Notes: a model not told the origin generated them from the sequence alone. DNA of 64,000 nt from Polyangium jinanense (GCF_028435265.1 NZ_JAGTJK010000012.1:102900-166899), one strand, 5' to 3'; counted from the first letter of the stretch, positions 1 to 49,860 are shown. Program-made: numbers and translations.

Positions 1-136
1 CGGCGGGCTCGGGCGCGAGGAGCGGGGCGTTCGCTTGCGAATCGGACTTCGGCGTGGGGGAGCACGCGGCGAAGCCGAGGAGGGCGAAGCGGGCGAGGGA
101 CCGGGGCGCGAATCGAGGGGCCGAGGGGAAGGCCAT
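1..136 (-). CDS. Lipoprotein precursor, N-terminal part only; the gene runs leftwards out of the window
   Basis: Not in the ORF track because there is no stop in the window. The reverse complement from the ATG at 136 reads MAFPSAPRFAPRSLARFALLGFAACSPTPKSDSQANAPLL. That gives a basic n-region, a hydrophobic core and a lipobox-like FAAC. It is divergent from the HAD gene across a 167-bp spacer. Confidence 0.4.
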   Translation of the reverse strand, partial: MAFPSAPRFAPRSLARFALLGFAACSPTPKSDSQANAPLLAPEPA

Positions 137-169
137 GTGGCCGTGAGCGTGGATCGAATCGAGCAGGCG

Positions 170-300
170 CGCTCGCGCCTTGGAGCGGCTTTTGCGTGTG
201 GAAATGGCGAATGCCTCACCGTGTTACCATGATGTCGTGAAAATGGTGTTCACGGGATTCGAGCTTTCCGTGGTAGGGTGATCTCAGAAAGGGGATCCTT
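170..300. repeat. Copy 1 (U1) of a ~130-bp upstream-region repeat, directly 5' of the HAD lipoprotein gene
   Basis: Aligns by eye with 2058..2197. Shared blocks are ggagcggcttt, gtgtggaaat, gtgttacca(t/c)gatgt, ttcac(g/c)ggattcgagctttc and (a/t)gggga. It lies in a divergent promoter region. Confidence 0.6.
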
Positions 301-303
301 GCC

Positions 304-1758
304 ATGATCAAGATTCGATCTTTTCTTCCCGTCGCGCTCGTTGTGGGGATGGCGACGCTCTCGGCGGCTTGCACGGACGAGGGAGAGAACGGCTCCGGAG
401 GCAACGGGGGAGCAGGCGCGACCGGTGGCACGGGCGGTACGGGCGGCACCGGTGGAATGGGCGGCACGGGCGGAATGGGCGGGGCCGGGGGAATGGGCGG
501 CGCGGGTGGAATGGGCGGCGTCGGCGGGATGGGCGGCGCGGGAGGCGCGATGGCCGCGCCGGACCTGGATTCGAATCTGATGTGGTACGGCCAGAACCGC
601 GAAGCGCTCGACAAGATGATCGACGAGGTCGGGGTGAACAGCGCGTCGTACGATCCGGCGCAGAAGCCCGTCGCGATTTTCGACTGGGACAACACGGTCA
701 TCAAGAACGACGTGGGGGATCTCGTGTTCTTCTGGCTCGTGAAGAACGACAAGATCATGCAGCCGCCGAACAAGGATTGGCGCACGACGAGCCGTTTCCT
801 GACGAATGACGCGCGGAACGCGCTGAACCAGGCGTGCGGAGCGCTGGTCGACGCGGGGATGCCGCTGCCAACGAGCACGAACGCGGAATGCGCGGACGAG
901 ATCCTCGCGGTGTATACGACGGGGAAGACGGTGGACGCGAAGGCGGCGTTCGAGGCGTGGAACTATCGCACGATGGAGCCTGCGTACGCCTGGGCCGCAG
1001 AGGTGCAGGCGGGATACACGCCGGCCGAGATGAAGGCATTCGCGAACACGGCGATCGAAGAGGGGCTCGCCGCGGCGGAGGGGACGAAGCAGACGATCGG
1101 GACGACGTCGGTCAATGCGTACGTGCGGATCTACGAGCAAATCAACGATCTGATCGACGTGATGCAGAAGAATGGGCTCGACGTGTGGGTGATTTCAGCA
1201 TCGCCGCAGCCGAACGTGGAGGCGTTCGCGGAGCGCGTGAACGTGGGCGCGGATCACGTGATCGCGATCCGGAACCTGCTCGACGGGGCCGGGAAGCTGA
1301 CGTACGACTTCGAGGGATGCGGATCGGTCGTGGATGGGTCGGGGAACGGCGCGAATCCCGTCGGCAATACGATGATCACGTACATCGAGGGCAAACGCTG
1401 CTGGATGAACAAGGTGATCTACGGGGTGACCGGGGCCGACGCGGAGAAGCCGAACGCGGACATGAAGAAGCGGCCGGTGTTCGGCGCGGGCGACTCGGAT
1501 ACGGACATCTCGTTCCTGCACGACGCGACGGTGCTGAAGCTCGCGGTGAACCGCAACAAGAACGAGCTCATGTGCAACGCATACGCGAACTACATGAACA
1601 AGTGGCTCGTGAACCCGATGTTCATCCTCCCAAACCCGCAGAAAGCCGCGCCGTACCCGTGTGCGACGACGGGCTGCAAGGACGCGTCGGGCGCCTCCGT
1701 TTCGTGCGTGAACGAGGTGGGTGAGGGGATCCCGGATCAGATGGATACGGTGTTCTGA
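304..1758 (+). CDS. Secreted HAD-superfamily (HAD-IB/SerB-like) phosphatase lipoprotein with a Gly-rich linker
   Basis: 484-aa ORF. The signal peptide plus lipobox reads LSAAC. A GGTGG/GGMGG low-complexity linker is encoded by short tandem repeats at ~400..545. HAD motifs are FDWDNT (DxDxT), ISASPQP, and K...GAGDSDTDISFL. Confidence 0.85.
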   Translation: MIKIRSFLPVALVVGMATLSAACTDEGENGSGGNGGAGATGGTGGTGGTGGMGGTGGMGGAGGMGGAGGMGGVGGMGGAGGAMAAPDLDSNLMWYGQNREALDKMIDEVGVNSASYDPAQKPVAIFDWDNTVIKNDVGDLVFFWLVKNDKIMQPPNKDWRTTSRFLTNDARNALNQACGALVDAGMPLPTSTNAECADEILAVYTTGKTVDAKAAFEAWNYRTMEPAYAWAAEVQAGYTPAEMKAFANTAIEEGLAAAEGTKQTIGTTSVNAYVRIYEQINDLIDVMQKNGLDVWVISASPQPNVEAFAERVNVGADHVIAIRNLLDGAGKLTYDFEGCGSVVDGSGNGANPVGNTMITYIEGKRCWMNKVIYGVTGADAEKPNADMKKRPVFGAGDSDTDISFLHDATVLKLAVNRNKNELMCNAYANYMNKWLVNPMFILPNPQKAAPYPCATTGCKDASGASVSCVNEVGEGIPDQMDTVF

Positions 1759-1773
1759 TCGCGGAAACGAAAA

Positions 1774-1799
1774 GGGAGGGCTCCGCGCGGGGCCCTCCC
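1774..1799. terminator. GC-rich hairpin between the convergent HAD gene and the FGE fragment (candidate bidirectional terminator)
   Basis: GGGAGGGC (1774..1781) pairs with GCCCTCCC (1792..1799). It starts 16 nt after the HAD stop. There is no U-tract, which is common in high-GC genomes. Confidence 0.45.
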
Positions 1800-1806
1800 C
1801 GGGTGT

Positions 1807-2053
1807 TCACGGGTTCCGGACGCAACGAAAGCCGAGCCCGGGGACCTCGTAGGTGTGAATGGCGGCGCCGCGGAAGGCGGTCTGGATGCCGAGGTTCGAT
1901 CGATTCCAGCCGCCGCCACGCACGACGTGCACGAGCACGCCGGGCTTTTGCACGTGGGGATCCGTGACGGCGTCGGCGCCATATTTGGCATAGGTGTCGT
2001 CGCACCACTCCCAGACGTTGCCCGCGAGGTCGTGGAGCGTGCCGGTGGGCCAG
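1807..2053 (-). pseudogene. 3' fragment of the FGE/SUMF1-family gene (duplicate of the C-terminal ~82 codons of 3328..4371)
   Basis: Lies inside repeat A copy 1. It encodes ...HDLAGNVWEWCDDTYAKYGADAVTDPHVQKPGVLVHVVRGGGWN...GFRCVRNP. Homology to the intact gene stops abruptly at 2053/2054. Confidence 0.85.
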
Positions 2054-2057
2054 ATGC

Positions 2058-2197
2058 GGTCGCGCCCTGGAGCGGCTTTGGGCGTGTGGAGTGCGTGTGG
2101 AAATAGGGAATGGTTCAGCGTGTTACCACGATGTAAATAAAATTACGTTCACCGGATTCGAGCTTTCTGGCGCGGGATGACCTCTTGGGGGAGTGGG
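2058..2197. repeat. Copy 2 (U2) of the ~130-bp upstream-region repeat, 5' of the small lipoprotein ORF
   Basis: Diverged copy of 170..300, with an extra gtgcgtgtgga (a local duplication of gtgtgga). It begins right at the breakpoint of the FGE fragment. Confidence 0.6.
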
Positions 2198-2235
2198 CGC
2201 GACCAGCTGCACGAACACATATCAATTGTTCAGTG

Positions 2236-2265
2236 TTGTGGCGCATGTCTGTTCCATACTATAGT
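2236..2265 (+). promoter_or_regulatory. Candidate sigma-70-type promoter for the small lipoprotein ORF
   Basis: TTGTGG (2236..2241), an 18-nt spacer, then TATAGT (2260..2265), inside a conspicuously AT-richer patch at 2100..2360. This is a pattern match only. Confidence 0.3.
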
Positions 2266-2361
2266 TCCTTGCCTCTCTGCGAGGGCGTAGTGCTAGGTGG
2301 CACGGGGCGCAGCGCAGCCAGGTGCGGTCAGGATGATCGATAGCAGAGGACGAGGTGAATC

Positions 2362-2793
2362 ATGCCTTCGAGCAAGATCGACGCGATGATGTTCACGGTT
2401 CTCATCGGAATGGTGTCGGCAGGCTGCATCGCCGAGGACGGCTCCGTCCAAGACGAGTATGCGATGCGTGCAGAGGAAGAGGTCGAGGCGGTTGAGGAGG
2501 CCGCGCAGGCGCTCGATACATGCACGACGACCGGCGGCGGCACCTGGGGAAACATCATTACCCTCTGCAGGACGTCGAACAACAGCCTCTACGTCAAGAA
2601 ACGCGACGGTGGGGCGTTTACGTCTTCGGGGACGATGAAGCTCAAGACGTGGTTGGGTACCATCGACACGAGGCCCGTATACGTCGGACAAAAGGAGGTC
2701 TGGTTCGGCCCCCCGGGGCCGGGATGGTATTCTGCTCTCTACGAGTCTAATGCGCCCGGGACGGCTTATACGGGCGAGATTCAGGTCCAGTAA
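2362..2793 (+). CDS. Small hypothetical lipoprotein (143 aa) carried on the low-GC insert
   Basis: A gaggacgagg RBS-like purine run precedes the ATG. The signal/lipobox reads MMFTVLIGMVSAGC. An acidic stretch is followed by a Gly/Thr/Tyr-rich ~90-aa domain with 2 Cys. A perfect hairpin follows the gene. No family was recognised. Confidence 0.55.
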   Translation: MPSSKIDAMMFTVLIGMVSAGCIAEDGSVQDEYAMRAEEEVEAVEEAAQALDTCTTTGGGTWGNIITLCRTSNNSLYVKKRDGGAFTSSGTMKLKTWLGTIDTRPVYVGQKEVWFGPPGPGWYSALYESNAPGTAYTGEIQVQ

Positions 2794-2803
2794 TGATCGT
2801 CTG

Positions 2804-2832
2804 CCCAGCGCCGCTACCCAAGCGGCGCTGGG
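2804..2832 (+). terminator. Perfect 12-bp stem hairpin after the small lipoprotein ORF
   Basis: CCCAGCGCCGCT, loop accca, then AGCGGCGCTGGG, starting 10 nt after the TAA stop. Its 3' arm overlaps the start of direct repeat B. Confidence 0.55.
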
Positions 2833-3047
2833 CGGGTGGGATCAGTCGAGGCCGAGGCGCGCGCGGGCGTCGGCGTACGCGTCGCTCACCGAGAACACGA
2901 TGAGCTCGCGGGCCTCGGCATTGCGACCGATCCAGGTGAGGCGCTCCTTGCCGGACGCCGGAGGCTGGTTCGTGTGGCCGCCAGCCCAGGCAATGCCCGT
3001 GAGCGCGATGTTGGGATCACCGACCGCGAGCAAGCCCGCGCGCGCAC
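2830..3047 (-). pseudogene. 3' fragment of the giant TPR gene (direct repeat B, copy 1, 218 bp)
   Basis: Identical to 4331..4548 apart from 2 mismatches seen by eye. It encodes ...AVGDPNIALTGIAWAGGHTNQPPASGKERLTWIGRNAEARELIVFSVSDAYADARARLGLD, which is the C-terminus of the 4343..9343 protein. Confidence 0.85.
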
Positions 3048-3279
3048 GACGGTGCTGAAGCTCGCGGTGAACCGCAACAAGAACGAGCTCATGTGCAACG
3101 CATACGCGAACTACATGAACAAGTGGCTCGTGACCCCGATGTTCATCCTGCCAAACCCGCAGAAAGCCGCGCCGTACCCGTGTGCGACGACGGGCTGCAA
3201 GGACGCGTCGGGCGCCTCCGTTTCGTGCGTGAACGAGGTGGGTGAGGGGATCCCGGATCAGATGGATACGGTGTTCTGA
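3048..3279 (+). pseudogene. 3' fragment of the HAD phosphatase gene (last ~76 codons)
   Basis: Encodes TVLKLAVNRNKNELMCNAYANYMNKWLV(T)PMFILPNPQKAAPYPCATTGCKDASGASVSCVNEVGEGIPDQMDTVF. It is fused in the ORF track (2836..3279) to the antisense of the TPR fragment, so the ORF is a chimera with no HAD catalytic motifs. Confidence 0.85.
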
Positions 3280-3294
3280 TCGCGGAAACGAAAA

Positions 3295-3320
3295 GGGAGG
3301 GCTCCGCGCGGGGCCCTCCC
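3295..3320. terminator. Second copy of the GC-rich hairpin (between the HAD fragment and the intact FGE gene)
   Basis: Same sequence as 1774..1799, offset by 1521 bp. Confidence 0.45.
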
Positions 3321-3327
3321 CGGGTGT

Positions 3328-4371
3328 TCACGGGTTCCGGACGCAACGAAAGCCGAGCCCGGGGACCTCGTAGGTGTGAATGGCGGCGCCGCGGAAGGCG
3401 GTCTGGATGCCGAGGTTCGATCGATTCCAGCCGCCGCCACGCACGACGTGCACGAGCACGCCGGGCTTTTGCACATGGGGATCCGTGACGGCGTCGGCGC
3501 CATATTTGGCATAGGTGTCGTCGCACCACTCCCAGACGTTGCCCGCGAGGTCGTGGAGCGTGCCGGTGGGCCAGCTTCGCGCGCCCTTCGGATGCGAACG
3601 CACGGGCGAGGTGCCACCGCCGTGGCAGCCGGAGTCGCCTCCGGGCGAGACGAGGACACCAATGGTGAAATCGGCGTGCTCGCAGGTGGGTTCGTCGTTG
3701 CCCCAGGGCCATTTGCGTCCGTCGCCGCCGGTCGCCGCCCATTCCCATTGCGCCTCGGTGGGGAGGTCTTTGCCTTGGGCCTTGCAATACTTCTTGGCCT
3801 TGTCCCAGGAGACCTCGTTGGCGGGGTGATCGGGGCGGCGCGGATAGTTCGCAAAGACTTCGAGGGTCTTCGGCGGGTCGCAGGTCTTTTCGTCGACGCA
3901 TGGTTTCATGGCGGCGACGGTGACCTCGGTCTCGTCCATGCAAAACGGGCGCGTGAGGACGACGCGGTGCGGGCGATCGGAGTCGGGCTGGTGTCCCTTG
4001 CGGAGGCGGCGCGCGCCGCCATTCAAGGTAAAACCTTTGCCCATGACGAATCCGTCAGGGCCGGTTTTCGGGATGTAAACCTCGCCCGCAGGGCAATGCG
4101 GGACACACGCGCCCGTGGCCTCGTCGCAGCGCTCGATCGAGGCGCAGGTGACGCCAGCGCAGCGGGAAGGTTCGGGCGGGGGCGCGGCCGAGGGGAGGGG
4201 CGTGGGCGCCGGCGGCGGAGATGCCGCAGACGCGGGTGGGGTGGGCGCGGGGGAGGCGTCCGGGGAGGAGCAGGCGGCGGCCCCGAGGAGGAGGGCCGCC
4301 GCAGAGGAGAGCAGGCGCGAGGCCAAGCGAGGGCGGGTGGGATCAGTCGAGGCCGAGGCGCGCGCGGGCAT
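3328..4371 (-). CDS. Formylglycine-generating-enzyme (FGE/SUMF1) family lipoprotein
   Basis: 347 aa. The signal/lipobox reads LLLGAAAC, followed by a Pro/Ala-rich linker. C-terminal motifs GNVWEWCDD, VVRGGGWN and GFRCVRNP are typical of the FGE-sulfatase domain. Its start overlaps the stop of the upstream TPR gene by 29 nt. Confidence 0.85.
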   Translation of the reverse strand: MPARASASTDPTRPRLASRLLSSAAALLLGAAACSSPDASPAPTPPASAASPPPAPTPLPSAAPPPEPSRCAGVTCASIERCDEATGACVPHCPAGEVYIPKTGPDGFVMGKGFTLNGGARRLRKGHQPDSDRPHRVVLTRPFCMDETEVTVAAMKPCVDEKTCDPPKTLEVFANYPRRPDHPANEVSWDKAKKYCKAQGKDLPTEAQWEWAATGGDGRKWPWGNDEPTCEHADFTIGVLVSPGGDSGCHGGGTSPVRSHPKGARSWPTGTLHDLAGNVWEWCDDTYAKYGADAVTDPHVQKPGVLVHVVRGGGWNRSNLGIQTAFRGAAIHTYEVPGLGFRCVRNP

Positions 4372-4548
4372 CGGCGTACGCGTCGCTCACCGAGAAGACG
4401 ATGAGCTCGCGGGCCTCGGCATTGCGACCGATCCAGGTGAGGCGCTCCTTGCCGGACGCCGGAGGCTGGTTCGTGTGGCCGCCAGCCCAGGCAATGCCCG
4501 TGAGCGCGATGTTGGGATCACCGACCGCGAGCAAGCCCGCGCGCGCAC
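4331..4548. repeat. Direct repeat B, copy 2 (218 bp; covers the TPR gene 3' end and the FGE gene 5' end)
   Basis: See 2830..3047. Confidence 0.9.
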
Positions 4549-7500
4549 CCCAGCCGTTCACCGCGGTGTTGAGGGTCGAGGCGCGGTTGCCGATGTTGGC
4601 GATGACGTCGGTCGCGAGCGTGCGCACCTGCGGATCGAGGCTCGCCGGGAGCGCCTTGGCGACGCGCGCCGACGCATCGTTGAGCTTGGCCGGGTCGACA
4701 CCTTGCGGGGCAAACCCGGGGCTCAGCGCCTTGAGGTACGCGGCGAGCAGCGGCCAGAGGTCGATCGGCGCGGTGCGCGCGAAGGCCGTGGCATTCGCCT
4801 GGACGACCTTGAGCGCGCGGTGAACGAGGAACGTGCGGACAGCCTCGTTCGTCGCGGCCACGAGCGGCGCGCCGAGCACGATCGTCGGTGGATGCGCGCT
4901 CGCTGCGACGCACACCGAGCCGAGCGTGGACGACTGCAGCACCTTGAGATCCTCGATCCCGTAGGCGCGTGCGAGCTCCTTGATCTCCTCGGCGAGGTGC
5001 GCCTGCGGGGGCGGGAAGGGCGTCGCGCGGACCGACGTGACGTCGAACGGCACGGCCGTGTCGAGCATCGGCCCAGTGCGCTGCAGGAGGTCGCGGAACG
5101 CAGGCGTCATCACGTCGGGCGCGACCAGCTCGTCGAGCGAGAGGTCGCCGGCCGCCACGCCCGCGCCCGGAAGATCGACCGCGCCGCCGTCGAGGGCCGC
5201 CACGCTGCCACGCGCGATGCGCGCGACCTCGGGCCTTCCGCGTAGATCGGCGACGGTGGCGACGGTGCTGAAGAGGTACGGCTCGAAGCGGCCGGTGCCG
5301 AGCGCGCGGCGCGCGTCGGCGACGGCACGATCGAGCAGGACGTTCGCAGCCTGCGCCTGATCGGTGCGCTGGTAGAAGCTCGCGAGCGCGCCGAGCGCGA
5401 CGTCGTCCTTGGGCCAGGTCTTGCGCGCCTGGAGCAAGGTCTGCTCGGCCTTCTTGAGGTCGCCCATCGCCTCGTAGATCTCGGCGAGCTGCGTCGTGCG
5501 ACGGCACTTCGCCTCGGGCTCCTCGACGTTGTTGATGAGGATCGTCTGCTGCTCGAGGGCCTTCGCCGTGTCGCCGAGGTTCTTGTAGAGGTCGACGAGG
5601 CGCTCACGCGCGGGCTCGTTGTTCGCGAAGCGCTTCAAGACCTCCTGGTAGGAGAGCTCGGCGCGCTCGGCGTTCGGCAACGGTCCGTTGTAGAGGTCGC
5701 CGAGGCGCATGTAGAGCTCGGCCTGGCGCTCGGGCTCCGCGACGAGGCGCGCGAGCCGGATCCAGGCCTGCTCCGCGCCGCCCCAGTCGTCTTCCCTCGC
5801 GCAGACGTCGGCAAACGCCGTCAGAGCCTCGACGTGGTCGGGGTTCTGATCGAGCGCCGCCGCGAGAGCCTGCTTCGCCGCCGCCGCGTCGCCGACGTCG
5901 GCGAGCGCGCGGCCACGCAGGACCTCCATCTCGACACGCTCGGCCGGATCGGTGACGGCGTCGAGGCGACGTTCGAGGAGCGCGGCGAGCTCGGCCCGCG
6001 CGCCACTCGCGACGTAGATCGCCTGTAAGCGCTGGAAGACGTCGAGGTACGAGGGATCAACCGCGAAGACGCTCTCGAAGGCGCCACGCGCGCGCTCGGT
6101 CTCGCTCGTCTTGTCGGCCCAGAGGACCGCGGCGAGGTAGAGGTTGCGCACGCGCTCCTCGGCCGTCGCGCTGGTCTGCGCGGCAGCTTCGAGCGTGGTC
6201 GCAGCCCCGACGAAGTCGCCGCTCTGCTCGAGGGCGCGGGCACGTTCGAGGTGCACCACGAGGTGACCAGGCACGAGCTCGATCGCCTTTTCGAGGAGCT
6301 CGCGGGCCTTCTCGGTTTGCCCCGCACGCGTCGCGGACTCGGCAGCGCGCAGCGAGAGCGTGGCGATCTCGGAGGCGCGCTCGGTGCGGTTCGCGAGCTC
6401 GAGGTCGGCTTCGAGCGCCGTCGCCTCGTCGCCGCGCGCGCGAGCATGCGCCGCCGTTTGGCGGAGCGCCCAGAGCCCGCGAGGCTCGTTGCGATAGGCG
6501 ATCTCGACCGGCTCGCGCGTCTCGTCCCAGCCGTGGATGCGGAGGCGGAGGCGCGCGGAGAGGTGCGCATGCGCGATGGCCTCGGGGCCTTCGAGCGTCC
6601 TCGCGAGCGTGAAGACGACCGGCTCGAGCTCCTCGTCGCGGCCGCCCGCGATGAGGGCGCTCGCCACGCGGCGGAGCGTCGGCAGGTGCGTAGGCGTCTC
6701 TTCGAGGATCGTGCGGCGCCAGAGCAGGCCGCTCGCCGCGTCGCCACGGCCGATCTCGTCGAGCTCGGCGAGGCGCTCGTACGCCTGGAGCCGCTCGACG
6801 GAATCCTCCGTCGCGCGGGCGTACTGCAAGAGGCCGTCGACGAGATCACTCGTGCCATGGCCCGCGAGCGCGGCGCGGTACGCGCAGAGCGGCGCGAGGA
6901 GCGTCTCGCCCGCGGCGATGGCTTGCCGCGAGAGGGCCGCGGCCTTCTCGAGGTCGCCGTCGCGCTCGTACTCGAGCGCGGCTTCGAGCGAGAAGCGCGC
7001 GGCGTCGGAGCCCGTGGAGGCAGCCGCGCGCTCGGCACGCCAGGCCGCGCGATCCGCGGGGCGCTCCGGCGAGAGGCGCTCGTAGAGCTCGCGCAGGCCG
7101 ATGTCGTCGGGACGCGCCGTGAGCGCCTGCGCGAGCAGGCCCGCCGCATGCGCCGCGCCTTCCGGCGTGATGAGGGCTTCGCGCACGAAGTCGCGGGCCT
7201 GCTCGATCGGATCCTCGCTCGCCTGACGGCGGAGGTGGAGCCACTCGATGAGGCCGTCGCGATCGCCCACGCCGCGCGCCGTGCGCTCGCCGAGGTGCAC
7301 GGAGAGCGGGAGGCGCGCGTCGATCTCGGCCGCGCCGCGGAGGAGTTTGTCGCGTTCGTCGTCGATCGAGGTGTCGGGGACCTCGACCTCGAGCAAGCGG
7401 ATCGCCGCCTCCGTGAGCAAGAGCGCGGCGCGCGTGCCAGGCTCGATCGACTGCGCGAGGCCGGCGAGGACACTCGAAGCGGTCGCGGCGTCGGCGCCCG

Positions 7501-9343
7501 TCGCGCGAGCGCGCGTGGCGCCTTCGTGGGCCGGATCCGATTGGCGCGCGCGATCGTACCCTTCGGCCGCGAGCTCCGCGTCGCCCGCGAGCTCGGCGAG
7601 GAGCGCGCTCGCCAGCGCGCTGTCGCGATCCCCGTCCTCTGCACCGCGCCACGCGGCGACGGCGCGGGCGACGTTCGCGCCAGCCTTCGACTCGAGGTCG
7701 AGCTCGAGCTTGAGCGCGCGGCCCGTGCCGCTGTCGGCGGCGTGCTCGGTGTAGCCGAGGATCGCCGCCGCGAGGGCGTCGTTCTCGCCGAGGGGCTTGC
7801 CGTCGGGGCGAGCGTCGGCGAGGGCGCGGCCGAGCGCCGCGGAAGCACGCGCGCTCGGGCTGCCAGCGCCGATGACGCTGCTCGAAGACGCGTCGGTTTC
7901 GCGGGAGGCCGCGCTCGCCGCGGCGAGCAGCGGCGCGAGCTCGTCGTCGCCCGCGGCCGCGTCGACGGCCTGGTCGAAGAGCTCGCGCGAGCCTCCGGTG
8001 AGCGCCGTCAAGGAGAGGCGGTCGGCAGCCGAGAACGCGATCGTGTCGCTGCCCTCGACGGCCGCGCGCGCCGCGGCGGCGTCGCCGAGCTCGATCGCGC
8101 GGGCCGCGAGGGCGCGCCGCGCGTCGGCGTCGTGCGTGCCGTCGAGCGCGCCGCGCAGGGCCTCGATCGAGCCCGGACGCGTGTCCTTGCGCGCGGCCGC
8201 GAGCATGCCCGCGAGCCAGCCCGCGCCGCCCTTGAGGGAGGCGGTGCTGCGCAGGCGCCCGAGGCTCGACACCGCGAGGGACACGTCGCCCGCTTCGAGC
8301 GCGGCGCGCGCGCGGAGGAGCGCGTCGTACGCGGAGACGACACCGCGGATGCCACGCGGCACCACGCCGCGGTGGATCGCGACCTGCGTGAACGCGTCGC
8401 GCAGCGCCGAGAGCTCGCTCGTTTCCGGCGCGCGAACCTTCGTGAAGGCGTCGTCGGCGCTGCCGAGCGCCTCGGAGAAGCGCTGCACGTGCGGGCGCGG
8501 ATCCGTGGGCAGCGAGCGCTGCGCGAGGTCCATGCGCTTCTGGGCGCCTTCCTCGTCCTCCTGGCGGATGCGCAGGACCTCGGCGCCGAGCACGGCGGCG
8601 TGGGCCCGCGCGGCCGGCGTCGGCGCGATGCGCGCCTCGGTGTCGAGCACCTCGATCGTGCCTTGCCAGTCCTGATCACGCGCGAGGAGCCCGCGGATCT
8701 GGCGATGCGCGAGCGGAGAGCTCGGCGCGAGCTCGCGCGCCTCGGCCGCGATCGCGCGCGCTGTCTGCTCCTCGCCCGCCATCGCGTAGATCTCGGACAC
8801 CGCCACGAGCGCTCGCGCGCGCGCGGCCTTGTCCTCCATCGCCTCGGCTTCGGCGCGCAGCCACGCGGCCCGCTCGGCCCACGCGTCACGCTGCTGCGTG
8901 CGCACGAGGTGCGCGCTCGCGTCCTGCTCGTCGTCGAACGTGGGCGCTCCCGCGACGGGCGCGCGCTCGCGCCGCGACGGCGCGATCGGCACGTCGTCCT
9001 CGGCTTCCACCTCGGCCACGACCGCGGCCACCGGCGTCTCCACGACGGAAGGTCCCGCGGGCGTCACCGCGTCGTGGGCGCTCGTGTCCGCGGCCGGCAG
9101 CGTGTTCGTCTCGTCGACGAGGGCCTCCACGAGCCCGTCGTCCTCGGGCCTCGTGGGCAACTCGTGCCGCACGTCCTCCTTCATGCGCGCGGTCACCTCG
9201 CCGATCTCCGGCTCGCTGCCGGAGTTCCGCAGCGACGCCATCAGCTCGTCGGGCACGTGCGCCATGATGGTCGCAGCGTCGTCGTCGTCGTCTTCGATCG
9301 CGTCCTCTGCGAGGTCGATCTCGTCGTCTTGGGGCTCGCTCAC
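4343..9343 (-). CDS. Giant TPR-repeat protein (~1666 aa) with an acidic N-terminus and a non-TPR C-terminal domain
   Basis: The ORF-track ORF 4343..11602 is trimmed. Upstream of 9343 its translation is Arg/Gly junk that overlaps the next gene in another frame. A GTG at 9343 is preceded by aaggatcaagg; an alternative ATG lies at 9265. The body consists of TPR-like A/L/E/R helical repeats. No signal peptide. Confidence 0.75.
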   Translation of the reverse strand: MSEPQDDEIDLAEDAIEDDDDDAATIMAHVPDELMASLRNSGSEPEIGEVTARMKEDVRHELPTRPEDDGLVEALVDETNTLPAADTSAHDAVTPAGPSVVETPVAAVVAEVEAEDDVPIAPSRRERAPVAGAPTFDDEQDASAHLVRTQQRDAWAERAAWLRAEAEAMEDKAARARALVAVSEIYAMAGEEQTARAIAAEARELAPSSPLAHRQIRGLLARDQDWQGTIEVLDTEARIAPTPAARAHAAVLGAEVLRIRQEDEEGAQKRMDLAQRSLPTDPRPHVQRFSEALGSADDAFTKVRAPETSELSALRDAFTQVAIHRGVVPRGIRGVVSAYDALLRARAALEAGDVSLAVSSLGRLRSTASLKGGAGWLAGMLAAARKDTRPGSIEALRGALDGTHDADARRALAARAIELGDAAAARAAVEGSDTIAFSAADRLSLTALTGGSRELFDQAVDAAAGDDELAPLLAAASAASRETDASSSSVIGAGSPSARASAALGRALADARPDGKPLGENDALAAAILGYTEHAADSGTGRALKLELDLESKAGANVARAVAAWRGAEDGDRDSALASALLAELAGDAELAAEGYDRARQSDPAHEGATRARATGADAATASSVLAGLAQSIEPGTRAALLLTEAAIRLLEVEVPDTSIDDERDKLLRGAAEIDARLPLSVHLGERTARGVGDRDGLIEWLHLRRQASEDPIEQARDFVREALITPEGAAHAAGLLAQALTARPDDIGLRELYERLSPERPADRAAWRAERAAASTGSDAARFSLEAALEYERDGDLEKAAALSRQAIAAGETLLAPLCAYRAALAGHGTSDLVDGLLQYARATEDSVERLQAYERLAELDEIGRGDAASGLLWRRTILEETPTHLPTLRRVASALIAGGRDEELEPVVFTLARTLEGPEAIAHAHLSARLRLRIHGWDETREPVEIAYRNEPRGLWALRQTAAHARARGDEATALEADLELANRTERASEIATLSLRAAESATRAGQTEKARELLEKAIELVPGHLVVHLERARALEQSGDFVGAATTLEAAAQTSATAEERVRNLYLAAVLWADKTSETERARGAFESVFAVDPSYLDVFQRLQAIYVASGARAELAALLERRLDAVTDPAERVEMEVLRGRALADVGDAAAAKQALAAALDQNPDHVEALTAFADVCAREDDWGGAEQAWIRLARLVAEPERQAELYMRLGDLYNGPLPNAERAELSYQEVLKRFANNEPARERLVDLYKNLGDTAKALEQQTILINNVEEPEAKCRRTTQLAEIYEAMGDLKKAEQTLLQARKTWPKDDVALGALASFYQRTDQAQAANVLLDRAVADARRALGTGRFEPYLFSTVATVADLRGRPEVARIARGSVAALDGGAVDLPGAGVAAGDLSLDELVAPDVMTPAFRDLLQRTGPMLDTAVPFDVTSVRATPFPPPQAHLAEEIKELARAYGIEDLKVLQSSTLGSVCVAASAHPPTIVLGAPLVAATNEAVRTFLVHRALKVVQANATAFARTAPIDLWPLLAAYLKALSPGFAPQGVDPAKLNDASARVAKALPASLDPQVRTLATDVIANIGNRASTLNTAVNGWGARAGLLAVGDPNIALTGIAWAGGHTNQPPASGKERLTWIGRNAEARELIVFSVSDAYADARARLGLD

Positions 9344-9375
9344 GGGACCTTGATCCTTTGCTCCAGAGTCGTGGC

Positions 9376-12300
9376 TCACCGGACACCCATGCCGAGCTTC
9401 TTGCGCAGCTCGAGGTAGCTGGGGGAAAGCACGAACGAGAGAAGGCGACGCGAGCGCTCGCTCTCGGTGACCACCGAGCCGAGCTGATCCCGCGGCACGC
9501 TCACGATGTCGCTCAGAACGATCGAGACGTCGCCGGCGGCGATCACCGCCATGCGATCCAGGCTGCGACGCGCCGCGTTCGTCCACGCGCGTGCATCCTG
9601 CTTGCTCGACACGACCTTCTGGCAGACCTCGCCGATGCTCTTGCGGATCTTGCGCGAGATCTCCTTGTGCACCGCGCGCTGGATCTCGCCGTAGACCGCG
9701 TAGCCGGGGTTTTGGACCTTGATGTCGACCTCGTTGCACGCCGCGATGACCACGGACGCGACCGTGGCCTCGTCGCGCGTGCGGAGCGAGGTGATCCCGC
9801 GCCGCAGGGCGAAGACCGTGCGTGCGATGGCCGAGCGCGCCGCCGCGTCGAGCGGCGTCGTGATCCCGGGCCCGACGACGATCGCGGGCACCTCGCCGGC
9901 GACGCCGTGCACGCCCTTCGGCTCGGGGCCGCCCACGTAGAGCTCGAAGTCGCCCTCGAAGCCCACCGCGCCCATCCACTCGGCGACCGCCACGCGCAGC
10001 GGGTGGCCGCCGCGCGAGTCGATGCGCTCCTTCTTGCCGACGTTCAGCGAGCCGAGCGTCGGGCCGAGCGCGAGCGTCACCGTCTCGGCCATGAGCACGA
10101 AGAGCTCCGCGATCGGGCCGTTGTCCTCCGGATCGGCGATCTCGGCCATGGCCTTCGCGTCGAGCACGATCTGCGGCCGCGTCGCGACGCGACCGTCGAT
10201 CCGTTTGAGCTCCGTCGAGATCGCGTCGTCGTCGCGACCGAGCGAGACGAGGCAGCCGAGCGTCGCCTGGCGGAGCGCCGCGTCCTGCCCGGCCTGCGCG
10301 ATCTTCGCGAGCCGCTCGACGCGGTCGGCGTCGCACGGATCCTCGGAGAGCTTCTGCACGAGCACGTTCTTCGCGCGGCCGAGCAGGCGCTGACGGAGCG
10401 ACGCCTCGTAGCTCGTGGTGAGCACGAGATCGAGCGCCTCGCCGTCGTCCGGCGACTCGTCGAGCAGCTTCACGACCGCGCTCTCGGCCTTGAGCGGATC
10501 GTTCTGCTTGTCGCGCCAGATGGCCATCGCGAGCCGCGCGGCCTCCATGCGACCCTCGCGCTTGTCGCGCTCCTGCATGAGCTGCTCGAGGATCGACGTC
10601 GCGCGCGACCACGCGCCCGTCTTCGCCGCGACGCGCGCGAGGCGCTCGCGCACGGGCGGCGTGGACAGGCCCGCCTCGTGGAGACCCACGAGCACCTTGA
10701 GCGCCTTCTCCGGGGCGTTCAGCTTGTTCTCGTAGATGTCCACCGCCGCGACGCCGGACATCAGCCGCTGCTGCGCCGGCGCCTCGCCGATGCCCGAGAG
10801 CCGACCGAGCAGGTCCGCCGCCTCGGCGAACTTGCCCATCGTGATCGAAATCTCGCCGGCGAGCGCGAGCGCGCCGACGTGATCGGGCTCGAGCATCGTG
10901 ACGTTCTCGAGCGCCGACAGCGCGCCCTCGCGATCGCCCTTCTTGCGAAGCACGCGCGCGCGCTCCCAGAAGAGCTTGCCGATTTCCGCCTCGTCGTCGG
11001 CCACGTCGAGACGGCGCCCGATGATGTCGAGCAGCTTGTCGTCCTCGTTGCGCGAACGGACGCGGCGGAAGAGTTTGTCGAAGGCGACCGAACGGCTCGG
11101 ATCCCGATCGAATGCGCGGGCGAACGCGATCTCCGCGTCGTCGTGCGCGTCGGTGTGATCGAGCAGGATGATGCCCGCGGACTCCCAGAACGCCGCGCCG
11201 CGCGTGTCGTCCTTGCTGAGGGCGCCGAGCTGCGCGAGCGCGAGCGCCGTGGAGACGTGGTCGCCGAGCGCCTCGCTCGCCGCGCGCACGCCCTCCCACG
11301 ACACGATGTCGTCCTGGCGGCGCTCGACGGCCGCGCGGAAGGTGGCGAGCGCCGCCTCCACGTTGCCCGCCGCGAGCTCCGACCAGCCGGAGAGCGCCGA
11401 AGCGTCGCTGCCCGCATCCTCGCCGAGCGCCCCGCCCACGTTCTGCAGGGCGAAGGCGCGGCGGCGCGGATCGCAGCCGGGCATCGCGAGCTCCAGGTTC
11501 GCGAGGCGCGTCGCGTCCGACGTGCCGGCGAGCAGGGGCTGCGGCGTGCTCGGCTGATCCAGCATCGCCACGAGCGCGGCCGACGCGTCCATCGCCGACC
11601 ACGGCTCGTCGTCGAGGAACGTTCCCACCGCGCGGCGCGCGGCCACCTCGGCATCACGATCCTTCGCGGCGAGCGCCGCCCCGAGCCACTCGAGCGCGGC
11701 GTAGAGCTTCGGCTCCGCGTCCGCCCAGGCCGCCGCGCGCGACACCGCCGCGCCCGGGTCCTGATCGACCGTGCGCGCAAGGCGATACCGCTCCGCGCGG
11801 GCGATCGCCGTCGCTTCGTCGCCCTGGTCTTCCAGACGATCGAGCGCGCGATCGATCGCCCCACGATCACTCTGCGCCTCGGGCCACGTCAGGCGCGCGA
11901 GCCCCGCGGCGACCGTGATGTCGCCCGAGCCCTCGGCCTCCGCCGTCTCCAGCGCCGTGAGCGCCTCGGGGCGGTCACCCGCCTCGCCCTGGCCCACCTC
12001 CAGGCCGAAGCGCTCGATCGCGATGCTCGCCGGATCGGCGCCCGCCTCCGCTGCCGTGAGCAGCGCGCGGCGACGACCGTCGAGGCTGTCGGGATCGGCC
12101 CCGCGCAGCGCCCACGCGAGCAGCGCCGCGGCCGCCTTCGACGCGCTGCCGCGCGCCTGCTCGATGAGCTCGATCGTCTTCTGCCGATCGCCGATCCGCC
12201 ACGTGAGAAGCGCGGCTTCCAGGTAGAGCGCGGCGCCGAGGTCGATGTCCTCGGTCGCCGTCGCGCATGCCGACAGGATGTTCGACGCGGCCGCGAGGTC

Positions 12301-23000: not shown

Positions 23001-23725
23001 ACCGCATCCGCGCCCGTCTCCTCACGACCTCCCAGCCCCTCGGCGCCGCCTGCTCCGCATCGACCGATTGCGCGAGCGGCTTCTGCGCCGACGGCGTCTG
23101 CTGCAACACGAGCTGCGGCGGCTCCGCGCCCGATTGCCAGGCCTGCGCGGCCGCGCTCGGCGCCTCCGCCGACGGCACCTGCACGCCGCTCACGGGCGCG
23201 ACCTGCAACGACGACAATGCCTGCACGCAAAGCGACACCTGCAATGCGGGCGCGTGCGTCGGCGCCGCTCCCGTCGTCTGCACGGCCCAGGACGAATGCC
23301 ACGATCCCGGCACCTGTGATCCGGCGACGGGCACCTGTGACGACCCGGCGAAGGCGGACGGCGAAGCCTGCGCGGGCGGCACCTGCATGGGCGGGGTTTG
23401 CCAGAGCAGCGGAGCCGGCACGGGCGGGAGTGGCGGCAATGGTGGGAGCGGCGGCAATGGTGGAAGCGGCGGGAGCGGCGGAAGCGGCGGAAGCAGTGAA
23501 TCCAGCTCCTCGGGCACCGGCGTGACCACGACCGGCGCGGGCGGTGGAAACGACCTGGCCCCGGGCGGCGGAGCCGACCAGGCCAAGGGCTCGGCCGTAT
23601 CCGTCGGCTGCCAGGCCGCGAATGCGCCTGCGACGGGCGCTCCGATCGCCGCGCTGATGCTCGCCGCCGGGCTCCTCGCTCGTCGACGCGTCACCTCGCG
23701 CCGCCGCGCCGCCTCTCTCGCCTGA
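20018..23725 (+). CDS. Repeat (beta-propeller-like) surface lipoprotein with a Cys-rich module, Gly/Ser linker and MYXO-CTERM-type tail (1235 aa)
   Basis: The lipobox reads LVALVASC. About 15 repeats of ~50 aa follow the pattern (D)IYGARV(T/S)..G.VLDP.G..(V/I)S....Q..P.VA.(D)G..YLVVW.D.R. The Cys-rich part is CSASTDCASGFCADGVCCNTSCGG...CQAC. The linker is (GGS/GGN)n. The tail is SVGCQAANAPATGAPIAALMLAAGLLARRR. Confidence 0.8.
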   Translation: MSGLVSSCPRKGAASGVAARDRIRRGIGAALVVWLVALVASCSARDAELSMGETAPPEPAPLRAPGKRTQTSAPFDLDGVMRQVHFAFRKDGERWTGGHSTYEVRASTSAFAVRPASTEAQGAEATFETVSMTRGAARNLRGVEGRVEQDGHLAIARGDVTEHLRNDDEGVEQSFSFEAQPKGRGDLEIRVRVTGQAYAGETAAGHHFVDPATGLGLRYGLATWIDGRGERTAVPVRYAKAGGELVLTVPAAVVEGSAYPAVLDPTIGPEFGLDAPIYFPVSAAQTYPQVAFDGTNFLVTWLDARQINKVGLQTVVGVRVTPAGVILDPGGFEIGNAVHSNGPTKGPAVAFTGTHYLVVWAGGSAEGGVVVGARVTPDGAVLDPKKLGSQTAGVSAIDVAAAGANSLVVWAADGKVQAVRVDATGAAVGSQFPVLASTAKIESNPVVGSNGTDFLVAWEDTRNNAIADIYGARVTAAGAVLDPTGFAISLGAQTQLLPSVASNGTDYFVAWEDGRWGNKDIYGARVSSSGALLDPIGVQVSKNAGTQTSPAVAFDGSGYVVVWNDNRTGDSDIWQGRVSVAGAALDGTGTAVAVATNQQSRPSVACAGGACFAAWEDLRAGGNAAAYGARFTGSTVDDAGGLMLLSAANQQDAPSLAYDGTNYLVVWQDLRNNTNLDIYGARVSPAGDVLDPSGIQVSAATGDQSSPKVVWGGSQYMIVWEDKRSGTYYDLYAARMTAAGVITDPSGIPLVAVANRHEQAPQLAFDGTNYLVTWQDNRSSASSFSVYGALLTQAGTLLQPTGFQIGSLGVAGFSHAMAFGGGQYFVAWYTPGILGGVGGFRGGRVTTAGALLDNTAIVIRNTTTNGPVATAYDGLNFTVAYTSTRVFLARVTGAGVLIDTLDVELTPSNIYSSHPAIAFDGTDCLLVWRDGRHGNNGAIYGSWVTEAGDVLTPGGQPFAGNGAMFHGRPALASDGAGHLLLAYTKGDTAPPFGSNRIRARLLTTSQPLGAACSASTDCASGFCADGVCCNTSCGGSAPDCQACAAALGASADGTCTPLTGATCNDDNACTQSDTCNAGACVGAAPVVCTAQDECHDPGTCDPATGTCDDPAKADGEACAGGTCMGGVCQSSGAGTGGSGGNGGSGGNGGSGGSGGSGGSSESSSSGTGVTTTGAGGGNDLAPGGGADQAKGSAVSVGCQAANAPATGAPIAALMLAAGLLARRRVTSRRRAASLA

Positions 23726-26616: not shown

Positions 26617-26644
26617 GCCCGCTCTTCCGGTTGCACACCTCAGC

Positions 26645-26926
26645 TACCCAGCGGGTCGTCCTCAGCGAGCCGGCAGGCCGTCCTCGTCCTTCCGCAGGCC
26701 GTCGTCACCTACGCGGCAAGCCGTCCTCGTCCTTCCGTAGGCCGTTCTCATCTACGCGGCAGGCCGTCCTCACCTAACCGGAAGGCCGTCCTCACCTACC
26801 CGGCAGGCCGTCCTCGTCCTCCCGCAGGCCGTCGCCACCTACCCGGCAGGCCATCCTCAGCCTCCGAGAGCCTGGCCTCAGCGAGGCAAAAGCCCATCCT
26901 CGTCCTCCCGCACCCCGTCCTCAACC
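26645..26926. repeat. Non-coding array of ~13 degenerate tandem repeats (20-23 bp; alternating long/short units give a ~43-bp super-unit)
   Basis: Example units are tacgcggcaggccgtcctcacc, tacccggcaggccgtcctcgtcc and tcccgcaggccgtcgccacc, sharing the core GGCCGTC(C/G)TC. The array fills most of the 393-bp gap between 26616 and 27010. Stops interrupt the frames I read through the array and no track ORF spans it. Confidence 0.85.
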
Positions 26927-48570: not shown

Positions 48571-49860
48571 ATGACGTTCTTCCGAACGGGCCATGGTCTC
48601 TTCCAGTTCGGGAGGCCGAAGCGCCTCGACAGGCACGGGATCCTCGCCTTTCTGCGCAGCGTCGCGACCGATCGTGGAGGCATGCTGGAGCTTCGGCGCA
48701 TCCTCGCCGACGAGCTGCATCGCACGTCGATCCACAACATGCGCGACGAGCTCGTGATCGAGCAGCTCGCGGACCGTTACCTGCGCGGCTCGCTCACGCT
48801 CGTCCACGTGCGCCCGCTCGACATCGGGATCGAGCTCGAGGGCTTCCTCGTCGAAGGCGCGGACGCCACGCCTTTGACCGGCCCGAAGAACGAGGCCGGC
48901 GACCTGCGCCCCGCGCCCGAGGTCCCACCCGAATATCCGGTCCTCGCGCGTGTCGAGTCCGATCAGATCATCGACTCCACGCTGAAGCTCGTCGCGAAAC
49001 TCGGCGATCTGCTCTTCGGGGCGTTTGGCCTGCAAAAACGTCCCTCGACGCTCGCGAAGGAGCTCGTGCTGCTCGCCGCCGAAGAGGCGAGCGGCGTGAA
49101 GCTCGCGAACACGAAGGTCGATCTCGATCTCGGGTTGCAACTGCATCCGCAGGGCAAGATCCTGCTGCCCGATCCGCAAGTGAAGGACGCGTACGTCGCC
49201 GCGGCGGCCGAGATCGCGGCGGGGCCGCGTCCGGCGGCAAAGGGTCTCATCGATTTGATGTGGCCGCTCACGCGGGTCGACACGAACCGCCGCTTCGACA
49301 ATCCCGTCGGGGCCGGGCCGGTGAAGAGCGATCAAAGCGACGGGAAGAAGGGCCCCGAGGCCGCGCTGGATTGGGTCGAAATCGAGCTCGTCGACGACGG
49401 CGATCCGCCGAAGCCCTACGCCGGCGCGCGGTATCGAATCGAGCTCGAGGGCGGCAAGGTGATCGAGGGGACGCTCGACGACGACGGCAAGGCGCGCGTC
49501 GATGGGATTCCGTCGGGCAGCGGGACCGTCACGTTCCCGGACATCGACGCCGGGTTTTGGGGGACGAACGGCGCAGGCAGCGCAGGCGCCGCCGCGCCGC
49601 CGCCTCCGTCTTCGTCGTCGTCCTCCGCGGTCTCCGCGGACGAGGCGTGGGTCGAGATCGAGCTCGTCGACGACGACGACCCGCCGAAGCCCCGCGCCGG
49701 CGCGCGATATCGTATCGAGCTCGAGGGCGGCAAGGTGGTCGAGGGGACGCTCGACGACCAAGGGAAAGCGCGCGTCGACGGGATTCCGTCGGGCAGCGGG
49801 ACCGTCACGTTCCCGGATATCGATGGCAGCACGTGGGGGCCGGGAGAACGAGGCACATGA
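48571..49860 (+). CDS. Hypothetical protein (~429 aa) with two copies of a ~59-aa beta-rich module; first gene of the putative effector operon divergent from vgrG
   Basis: The ATG at 48571 follows caggaagag and is in frame with track ORF 48451..49860, whose first 40 codons would overlap the vgrG start. No signal peptide. The C-terminal modules read WVEIELVDD(G/D)DPPKP.AGARYRIELEGGKV.EGTLDD.GKARVDGIPSGSGTVTFPDID. Confidence 0.65.
   Translation: MTFFRTGHGLFQFGRPKRLDRHGILAFLRSVATDRGGMLELRRILADELHRTSIHNMRDELVIEQLADRYLRGSLTLVHVRPLDIGIELEGFLVEGADATPLTGPKNEAGDLRPAPEVPPEYPVLARVESDQIIDSTLKLVAKLGDLLFGAFGLQKRPSTLAKELVLLAAEEASGVKLANTKVDLDLGLQLHPQGKILLPDPQVKDAYVAAAAEIAAGPRPAAKGLIDLMWPLTRVDTNRRFDNPVGAGPVKSDQSDGKKGPEAALDWVEIELVDDGDPPKPYAGARYRIELEGGKVIEGTLDDDGKARVDGIPSGSGTVTFPDIDAGFWGTNGAGSAGAAAPPPPSSSSSSAVSADEAWVEIELVDDDDPPKPRAGARYRIELEGGKVVEGTLDDQGKARVDGIPSGSGTVTFPDIDGSTWGPGERGT
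49372..49824 (+). repeat. Internal duplication: two 177-bp units (49372..49548 and 49648..49824) separated by a Ser/Pro/Ala linker
   Basis: The two units align colinearly without gaps, with most positions identical at the nucleotide level by eye. Confidence 0.85.

Follow-up and report, generated by a model that had tools for sequence, protein, structure and literature searches.

A mosaic rearrangement with direct repeats around a small predicted lipoprotein gene in Polyangium jinanense

RESULTS

The HAD-FGE-TPR locus of Polyangium jinanense carries a genuine structural variant that is specific to this species, and we attribute it to homology-poor recombination rather than to a mobile element. 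It probably arose by illegitimate recombination that duplicated a segment in tandem, followed by replacement of the 5' part of one FGE copy with a cassette.

A 64-kb window containing the locus was analyzed, and base-by-base comparison identified two pairs of direct repeats. Repeats A (1527..2053) and A' (3048..3574) are 527 bp long with 3 mismatches (1613 A/C, 1629 C/G, and 1954 G/A), and repeats B (2830..3047) and B' (4331..4548) are 218 bp long with 2 mismatches (2869 G/A and 2896 C/G). These coordinates and counts are exactly those of the original prediction. Identity ends abruptly at all four outer repeat edges. A repeat search and self-BLAST also recovered both pairs, with no further long near-identical repeats in the window. 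The resulting layout is a-A-X-B-A'-c-B'-e, with an A-c-B unit of 1,501 bp, and X (2054..2829, plus strand, 776 bp) fills the slot in the first unit that c (3575..4330, 756 bp) holds in the second. X and c are unalignable (~46% identity), and the two units are therefore not both complete and colinear. As anticipated, X is a low-GC insert in the position of c, with a G+C content of 59.1% compared to 70.1% for c and 68.5% for the window.

Three intact genes were identified using open reading frames and Pfam. An HAD-family hydrolase lipoprotein gene (304..1758, plus strand, 484 aa; PF12710, 8e-11) has orthologs with 88–95% identity in sister Polyangium, and upstream of it the divergent intergenic region includes a promoter-like part (169..268, plus strand) that is a paralog of the left end of X and is 93–97% conserved in sister strains. 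An FGE-sulfatase (SUMF1/EgtB/PvdO-type) lipoprotein gene (3328..4326, minus strand, 332 aa; PF03781, 1.5e-38) is an exact match to a GenBank protein (P0024). Its TTG start at 4326 is conserved in sister genomes, including L010, where the ORF has 331 aa; the ATG at 4371 is not the conserved start but the product of a derived substitution at 4370. Segment c consequently holds FGE codons 1–251 of 332 and a 4-nt leader, about three quarters of the gene and not the 5' two-thirds first proposed. The TPR-repeat protein gene (4343..9379, minus strand) has TPR Pfam hits and an approximate start, with a GTG at 9379 yielding 1678 aa compared to 1669–1677 aa in sister genomes (ORF 12509..17542 in L010; 1669 aa in L018). 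HAD and FGE converge on a terminator hairpin (1774..1799; 11-bp G+C stem, dG -31.7 kcal/mol) that is kept in sister strains and has a second copy at 3295..3320.

The repeats cut across these genes. Repeat A takes in the final 232 nt of HAD, the intergenic terminator between HAD and FGE, and the final 247 nt of FGE, and B contains 12 nt of the TPR-FGE spacer and the last 206 nt of TPR. In the second unit, A' holds an HAD 3' fragment (3048..3279) and the terminator together with the 3' end of the intact FGE, and B' lies within the 3' end of the intact TPR and the TPR-FGE spacer. Three 3' fragments accompany the three intact genes, as had been described. The FGE fragment (1807..2118, minus strand) joins 82 FGE codons (1810..2053) to 21 codons antisense to X, and its translation exactly matches a 103-aa GenBank protein (P0025; MDC3956728.1 and MDC3984791.1). 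The TPR fragment (2842..3033, minus strand) is annotated as a 63-aa protein and is an exact match to P0039 (MDC3956730.1 and MDC3984793.1). The HAD fragment (3052..3279, plus strand) is annotated as a 75-aa protein (P0023; MDC3956731.1 and MDC3984794.1) with a Thr allele specific to copy 2.

All six sister loci have a single-copy arrangement (a-A-c-B-e) with HAD convergent to FGE and TPR (L010, L001, L002, L003, and L004, and L018 of P. mundeleinium, which is on a 13.2-Mb contig). None has a gene resembling X, and the B|A' join at 3047/3048 occurs only in P. jinanense. The single-copy order in six sister genomes indicates that the a-A-X-B-A'-c-B'-e layout is derived, in agreement with the proposal of a recent, lineage-specific mosaic. 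Polarization using these outgroups assigned two derived changes to copy 1 and three to copy 2. All three of the derived changes in intact genes are synonymous, and the sole non-synonymous derived change is in the HAD remnant. The copies differ at 5 of 745 positions (0.67%), versus 34 of 745 (4.6%) to the nearest sister. The description of the event as very recent thus holds in relative terms, but five substitutions have had time to accumulate.

These comparisons bear on whether the structure is an assembly artifact, or the result of stitching together wild-type and variant molecules from a mixed culture. At 527 bp and 218 bp, the repeats exceed the length of short reads, and the longest contig in the public assemblies, which are drafts, is 257,795 bp. 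However, any assembler would need reads holding three novel junctions (A|X, X|B, and B|A'), a mixture of two alleles would produce a bubble and not a B|A' join, and each copy has substitutions that are derived relative to the six outgroups, in a pattern resembling selection. Moreover, two P. jinanense assemblies annotate the series of five ORFs (FGE fragment, X, TPR fragment, HAD fragment, and FGE), two of which need novel junctions, with consecutive accessions (MDC3956728-32 and MDC3984791-95), although these assemblies have identical proteins and may be from the same or clonal strains, and so are not fully independent. The occurrence of the series in both makes misassembly, which the original prediction had allowed for, very unlikely.

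Segment X, which the original prediction did not recognize as a gene, is a complete and functional-looking gene cassette, with a promoter-like region, a lipoprotein gene, and a terminator hairpin. The promoter-like segment (X-left; 2056..2167, plus strand) has ~75% identity over 112 nt to the HAD upstream region and was not found upstream of X homologs in other taxa. The gene (2362..2793, plus strand) codes for a 143-aa lipoprotein with a VSAGC lipobox that is 100% identical to a P. jinanense protein (P0001). Homologs are 61–76% identical with 63 invariant columns, and the family, which is conserved in Polyangiaceae, is rare, with only 18 representatives among 1.8 billion proteins. A structure model and fold search predict an Ig-like beta-sandwich fold for the protein. 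Downstream, a perfect 13-bp palindrome with a 5-nt loop (2803..2833, plus strand; dG -39.7 kcal/mol, z -6.6) probably serves as terminator for the X gene; it straddles the X|B junction, with 4 nt of its right arm in repeat B, and X homologs also have a hairpin directly 3' of the stop codon. Neither the window nor the fetched loci contain a second copy of the palindrome. Homology with relatives is confined to the coding region. Homologs of the gene occur in variable neighborhoods, adjoining McrBC genes and, once, an rve integrase fragment.

Could X be a mobile element or site-specific cassette (an IS, MITE, integron cassette, or integrative element) that caused the duplications? The variable neighborhoods of its homologs and the strong palindrome at its end are features such an element might have, but X encodes neither a transposase nor an integrase, and Pfam has no match for the one conserved ORF in it. 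Pfam identified no transposase flanking or inside X, and a check of inverted repeats and flanks found neither terminal inverted repeats linking its ends nor a short target-site duplication, which bears out the earlier report that transposase, integrase, and inverted terminal repeats are missing here. The palindrome is not a repeated REP-like element, homology limited to the coding region does not fit a mobile unit, and transposition would not yield a 527-bp and a 218-bp duplication in permuted order. X also has no second copy in the window, and protein accessions indicate a single copy. We regard a mobile origin as barely credible.

At the B|A' junction (3047/3048), the repeats abut without a spacer, as first described, with a 1-nt overlap (C at 1526 = 3047 = 4548) that is common to both parents. 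One shared base is inside the range of 0–5 bp of identity found at bacterial duplication joins (PMC9997567). Microhomology at the other two junctions is read from the surrounding sequence: X-left and the HAD upstream region are paralogous, which points to a CAG at A|X, and a GGGC at X|B is suggested by the perfect 13-bp palindrome, which needs those 4 nt. All three breakpoints are within 1 kb, with microhomology of 1 nt observed at one and of 3–4 nt only inferred at the other two.

This clustering raises the alternative of one replication-based event with three template switches (MMBIR/FoSTeS-like). Replication would have copied a-A, jumped at CAG to an X template, continued for 776 nt to the base of the terminator hairpin, jumped at GGGC to B, copied 218 nt, and jumped at C back to the start of A. 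Microhomology of 1–4 nt at all three novel junctions (observed at one and putative at two) is consistent with this route, one junction coincides exactly with the base of a very stable hairpin that is a plausible polymerase stalling site, and a single event is the more parsimonious account. Elsewhere, complex patterns of duplication and insertion with microhomology have been documented (PMC3638133, PMC11790251). However, switching of the copy type keeps its template, and X has one accession per P. jinanense assembly (single copy, as judged from protein accessions in draft assemblies), no paralog in the protein database, and no second copy in the window. The source of X would need to be lost, unassembled, or transient foreign DNA. 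Nor was X-left copied from the local HAD upstream region, given that the two are only ~75% identical. We consider template switching unlikely as the origin. Of the two histories in the original prediction, duplication followed by replacement is favored, and the single-copy status of X in the genome counts against a purely intragenomic, copy-type template switch.

The same junctions could also result from recombination between alleles. An a-A-X-B-e allele, in which X destroyed FGE, would have arisen first and then come together with a wild-type allele in a single cell, either through DNA uptake or with the two on sister chromosomes. One homologous flank crossover and one illegitimate join (B|A'), by homology-facilitated illegitimate recombination or unequal crossing-over, would have restored FGE beside X. 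The structure is exactly the product expected from one anchor crossover and one 1-nt illegitimate join, and the five differences could be allelic between close strains instead of post-dating a duplication. In addition, X begins with 10 nt (ATGCGGTCGC) that agree with the FGE allele of L003 and L018 (GTGCGGTCGC) at 9 of 10 positions, with CTTCGCGCGC in copy 2. That match is not significant, because X-left already resembles the HAD upstream sequence there, which itself matches the FGE allele at 8 of 10 over the same nucleotides. The a-A-X-B-e allele is in none of the genomes examined, and the sister-locus comparison yielded neither a donor allele nor a recombination tract. Within A and B, copy 1 also has every window-specific difference from L010, so a donor would have to be of the same species. 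An allelic origin is quite improbable.

DISCUSSION

The sequence of events that we favor, duplication and then cassette replacement, would begin with an ancestral locus in which HAD converged on FGE and TPR. The 1,501-bp A-c-B segment, with the whole of FGE and the 3' ends of its neighbors, would have been duplicated head-to-tail through a join at 3047/3048 with 1 nt of shared sequence. The upstream FGE copy would thereby have been severed from the promoter of the TPR-FGE operon by the HAD/FGE terminator and a truncated TPR, and would have been dispensable as a result. Its 5' 756 bp would then have been swapped for an imported 776-bp cassette via two more joins, each with a putative microhomology of ~3–4 nt. 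This path has costs: to exchange 756 bp for a cassette of nearly the same size (776 bp), two illegitimate joins must occur independently within a small target, a rare event. The same product could come from a single replication event with several template switches, or from a wild-type allele joined illegitimately to an a-A-X-B-e allele.

The closest parallels to the duplication are the cat amplicons of Acinetobacter baylyi, spontaneous tandem duplications with join points formed by illegitimate recombination (PMC9997567). Both have head-to-tail direct copies, a novel join (B|A' here, with 1 nt), and a single-copy ancestor, and in both, homologous recombination between copies can collapse the structure. 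They differ in unit size (1.5 kb in P. jinanense and 12–290 kb in the A. baylyi type) and in setting, as the P. jinanense duplication is fixed in a natural isolate and the A. baylyi type is selected in the laboratory. Foreign DNA in the middle of one P. jinanense copy also makes the units non-equivalent, unlike those of A. baylyi.

FoSTeS/MMBIR rearrangements with templated insertions at duplication junctions are known from human, cancer, and yeast genomes (PMC3638133, PMC11790251). The P. jinanense locus resembles them in having several breakpoints within 3 kb, one of them at a hairpin, and a duplication-insertion-duplication layout; microhomology of 1–4 nt, putative at two of the junctions, may be a further likeness. 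It differs in that X has no detectable template elsewhere in the draft assemblies and in its bacterial host, as events of this type have seldom been documented in bacteria.

Two further systems combine insertion with flanking homology. In a Campbell-type merodiploid, the single-crossover integrant of a circular A-X-B molecule has a topology identical to a-A-X-B-A'-c-B'-e and the same two alternative resolution products, but B and A' abut directly here, with no vector or replicon sequence between them, and such a reading needs a 1.5-kb circle with no known natural source. The second, homology-facilitated illegitimate recombination during natural transformation, was reportedly treated by de Vries and Wackernagel in 2002. 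The term is discussed in PMC6382021. The topology of the P. jinanense locus is compatible with this route, which sets foreign DNA beside homologous sequence through one illegitimate join with minimal microhomology and yields an insertion flanked by host sequence; the A|X and X|B joins of P. jinanense differ in needing a separate explanation, and neither a donor allele nor any sign of transformation was found for Polyangium.

The rearrangement is real but ordinary, an event of a known kind. On balance, one new gene has been gained between HAD and FGE and none has been lost, and three short gene remnants remain. Recombination between A and A' would delete X, and recombination between B and B' would delete FGE. 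Assuming that typical rates of RecA-dependent deletion between repeats of 200–500 bp also apply to Polyangium, selection for both X and FGE may be the best explanation for the survival of the structure through five substitutions.

Repeat structure and gene content

The locus has the order a-A-X-B-A'-c-B'-e, in which A/A' and B/B' are direct-repeat pairs (copy 1, A and B; copy 2, A' and B'), X is a 776-bp insert in the first unit, and c is the 756-bp segment of the second unit that holds the 5' part of an FGE gene. Repeats A (1527..2053) and A' (3048..3574) share 527 bp with three differences (1613 A/C, 1629 C/G, and 1954 G/A), and repeats B (2830..3047) and B' (4331..4548) share 218 bp with two (2869 G/A and 2896 C/G). 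Comparison of the copies found the positions in the original prediction to be exact, with identity lost directly beyond all four edges. Self-BLAST and a repeat search returned the same two pairs and no further long near-identical repeat in the 64-kb window. B and A' are contiguous at 3047/3048. The G+C content of X (2054..2829) is 59.1%, while the window as a whole has 68.5% and c has 70.1%.

Genes were identified with Pfam as HAD (304..1758, plus strand) and, both on the minus strand, FGE-sulfatase and a long TPR protein. Three alternative starts of the HAD protein gave no exact match in the protein collection. Gly-rich 18/36-nt coding repeats (GGxGGM units) at 427..542 form a linker following the HAD lipoprotein signal, and similar repeats are found at 23417..23490, in a second gene of the window, and at sister loci in a gene that lies upstream of HAD.

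An ATG at 4371 (codon 4369..4371) was rejected as the FGE start (347 aa, overlapping TPR); it was created by a lineage-specific G>A at 4370 that is derived relative to all outgroups. The conserved start is a TTG at 4326 (codon 4324..4326), giving a gene at 3328..4326 and a protein of 332 aa that carries the lipoprotein signal MASRLLSSAAALLLGAAAC, agrees with the TTG-initiated 331-aa ORF of the nearest sister, and exactly matches a GenBank protein. The TPR stop codon is 16 nt upstream of this start, and TPR and FGE are therefore probably co-transcribed. The intact FGE gene lies wholly inside A' and c, and the X/B boundary is 4 nt upstream of the would-be FGE start codon position. A mechanical 2,419-aa ORF at 4343..11602 probably combines two neighbouring genes for TPR proteins; the annotation of sister genomes has a protein of ~1,670 aa and then a second large TPR protein upstream.

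Elsewhere in the window, a 176-bp direct repeat (49372..49547 and 49648..49823; 92% identity, 276-bp spacing) lies within overlapping long ORFs. Diverged tandem repeats with 73–83% identity at 59640..62797, within a 2,092-aa ORF (57347..63625), include 225-nt Cys-rich units at 60958..61445 and are probably repeated protein domains. Short-period (21-43-84 nt) tandem arrays at 26638..26923, 44299..44900, and 56479..56853 apparently encode repeats of low complexity or coiled-coil-like type.

Comparison with related genomes and age of the arrangement

When one genome per species was scanned, HAD was confined to Polyangium and the Polyangiaceae, with the closest match in Polyangium sp. 15x6 (L010; 95% amino acid identity). 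BLAST and multiple alignment identified a single-copy HAD> <FGE <TPR order in L010, two further relatives (L001 and L002), P. fumosum (L003), and a short contig (L004), each with one A, one c, one B, and nothing resembling X. The same single-copy order is present on a 13.2-Mb contig of P. mundeleinium (L018). No X-like gene was detected by tblastn at the HAD loci of relatives (L001–L011 and L018), and a distant HAD locus among these was rejected as the donor of X. Because these loci are single-copy and have no X-like gene, the layout is a derived state in the P. jinanense lineage, in support of a lineage-specific rearrangement.

Five ORFs in the region have exact matches to P. jinanense proteins, each with two GenBank accessions: the FGE remnant (1807..2118; 103 aa, annotated "FGE family protein"), X (143 aa, 100% identical), the TPR remnant (2842..3033; 63 aa, "hypothetical protein"), the HAD remnant (3052..3279; 75 aa, "hypothetical protein"), and intact FGE (332 aa). 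Their accessions are consecutive and in this order in both MDC3956728-32 and MDC3984791-95. The FGE-remnant ORF crosses the A/X junction and continues into antisense X, and the HAD-remnant ORF has a Thr specific to copy 2. One and the same arrangement is thus annotated in two assemblies; support is good and not fully independent, since all five proteins are identical between the assemblies, which may represent the same or clonal strains.

The five differences between copies were polarized with outgroups. Positions 1629 (intact HAD) and 2896 (TPR remnant) are derived in copy 1 and synonymous, and three positions are derived in copy 2: 3134 (HAD remnant, Asn to Thr), 3475 (intact FGE, synonymous), and 4370 (intact TPR, synonymous). 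Derived changes are present in each copy, all three in intact genes are silent, and the sole amino acid change is in a remnant, a pattern that looks like real post-duplication evolution and unlike the product of an assembler. Misassembly, which the original prediction had left as an option, is unlikely given these changes in both copies and the ORF series in two assemblies. Divergence between copies is 0.67% (5/745), compared to 4.6% (34/745) for matching columns between the window and L010. The event, predicted to be very recent, is young relative to speciation and is not brand-new.

The X cassette

X appears to be a complete small transcription unit. Its left end (2056..2167) shares ~75% identity with 169..268, which belongs to the divergent intergenic region directly upstream of HAD, and the shared promoter-like element is 112 nt long, with conserved blocks GTGGAAAT, GTTACCAYGATGT, AAAAT, and GTTCAC.GGATTCGAGCTTTC. 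Four sister strains have the element conserved upstream of HAD, whereas the X homologues of other taxa lack it. Recent copying of the local HAD promoter was rejected as its source because identity is so low while the HAD-upstream region is 93–97% conserved in sister strains; the left end of X also has a 12-nt internal duplication. It is thus either an old paralogue or an orthologue of foreign origin. An Rfam scan of the whole window found no family reaching the gathering score, so the element corresponds to no known RNA. A sigma-70 promoter scan of 1..4800 found nothing exceeding chance.

The X gene (2362..2793) encodes a 143-aa lipoprotein. Conservation of the mature part is strong across five homologues (61–76% identity): 63 columns are invariant, and there are two Cys as well as the motifs TGGGTWG and YxSNAPGTAYTGEIQV. 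Only 18 representatives of the family were identified among 1.8 billion proteins at E < 1e-3. An AF2 model (mean pLDDT 65, core 80–90) has an Ig-like beta-sandwich. A fold search gave generic Ig-like beta-sandwich matches alone (DUF3244, E ~6e-3) and no informative structural neighbour, and no function was assigned from these generic matches. Homology to X is restricted to the coding region, and the homologues occur in unrelated, variable neighbourhoods. In Polyangiaceae MAGs (contig L015, 5433..5840; contigs L013–L016, 7197..11000) they adjoin a McrBC restriction system, and on one contig an rve integrase fragment, neighbours which point to a gene travelling in regions of variable or defence type. 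This very rare family seems to move between Polyangiaceae genomes.

A perfect 13-bp palindrome at 2803..2833 (dG −39.7 kcal/mol, z −6.6) is unique within the window and all fetched loci. It is plausibly the native terminator of the X gene, because the homologues also have a hairpin directly 3' of their stop codons. Pfam and the repeat search found no transposase or terminal inverted repeats tied to X, as first read from the sequence, and no target-site duplication. With these hallmarks absent and the palindrome unique, X was rejected as a mobile element, integron cassette, or REP, and a mobile-element origin is unlikely.

Junctions and mechanism

The B/A' join has 1 nt of microhomology, a C that closes B/B' and also stands directly before A. 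At the X/B join, the right arm of the palindrome takes in the four bases with which B begins (GGGC), and the join would have used 4 nt of microhomology at the hairpin foot if the hairpin is native to X. X is homologous to the HAD-upstream region right to 2054; that region reads ...GAGCAG/GCGCGC... and A ends ...GGGCCAG/ (slashes mark the join), which suggests a CAG overlap at A/X. The A/X and X/B microhomologies stay inferred, since a search of metagenomes for relatives of X confirmed none of its 600 pattern matches and did not find the native X locus. The first 10 nt of X (2054..2063) match the FGE allele of P. fumosum and P. mundeleinium at 9/10 positions, so that the A/X crossover could lie anywhere in ~2051..2064. 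Descent of copy 1 from an older lineage was rejected as an explanation for this resemblance, which was judged to be chance and not significant because the HAD-upstream sequence itself matches the allele at 8/10; such descent is also at odds with a between-copy divergence of 0.67%.

Homology-poor (illegitimate) joining fits all data, and a two-step path is favoured. The 1,501-bp A-c-B unit would first have been tandemly duplicated; bacterial duplication joins typically have 0–5 bp of identity (PMC9997567). The 776-bp cassette would then have replaced, via homology-poor joins, 756 bp at the 5' end of the FGE copy lying upstream. This copy was probably silent, since a HAD/FGE terminator hairpin (present at 1774..1799 and 3295..3320) and the truncated TPR separate it from the TPR-FGE operon promoter, and as a spare it would have been free to be destroyed. 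Of the two histories originally proposed, duplication followed by replacement is thus preferred and a template switch is kept as a rival. A single multi-switch replication event is attractive in that it accommodates the clustering of microhomology joins and the breakpoint at a hairpin, and is weakened by X being single-copy in the genome, whereas copy-type switching retains its template. The topology is also compatible with illegitimate joining of a wild-type allele to an a-A-X-B-e allele already in existence, but the latter allele was not seen.

The locus has the defining features of tandem duplication by illegitimate recombination, including a short-junction join, and differs in that the two units are non-equivalent, with a filler or replacement insertion. 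It is also similar to FoSTeS/MMBIR complex rearrangements (PMC3638133, PMC11790251), except that on present data a template is not retained.

Consequences for the locus

Recombination between A and A' would remove 1,521 bp, X included, and return the locus to its ancestral form (FGE+ X−). Recombination between B and B' would remove 1,501 bp, after which FGE would be interrupted by X (FGE− X+). Direct repeats are generally subject to RecA-dependent deletion. That the structure has lasted long enough to fix five substitutions, although its direct repeats measure 527 bp and 218 bp, suggests selection on X as well as on FGE. It is highly improbable that the locus is a selection-stabilized natural merodiploid acting as a two-way recombinational switch. 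If it were, an FGE+ X+ parent would continuously yield two alternative surface-lipoprotein/FGE genotypes in the P. jinanense population, a primitive RecA-driven phase variation created by duplication-buffered gene capture.

This is a known kind of event that is well resolved here; it would not surprise a specialist and does not challenge current understanding. The annotated 63-, 75-, and 103-aa P. jinanense proteins are gene remnants and should be treated as pseudogene fragments, and the potential two-way collapse of the locus matters for strain stability and assembly. The locus provides a natural, fully resolved example of a bacterium gaining a gene with none lost, in which a small tandem duplication would have supplied a spare, promoter-less gene copy that absorbed the incoming cassette and left datable remnants.
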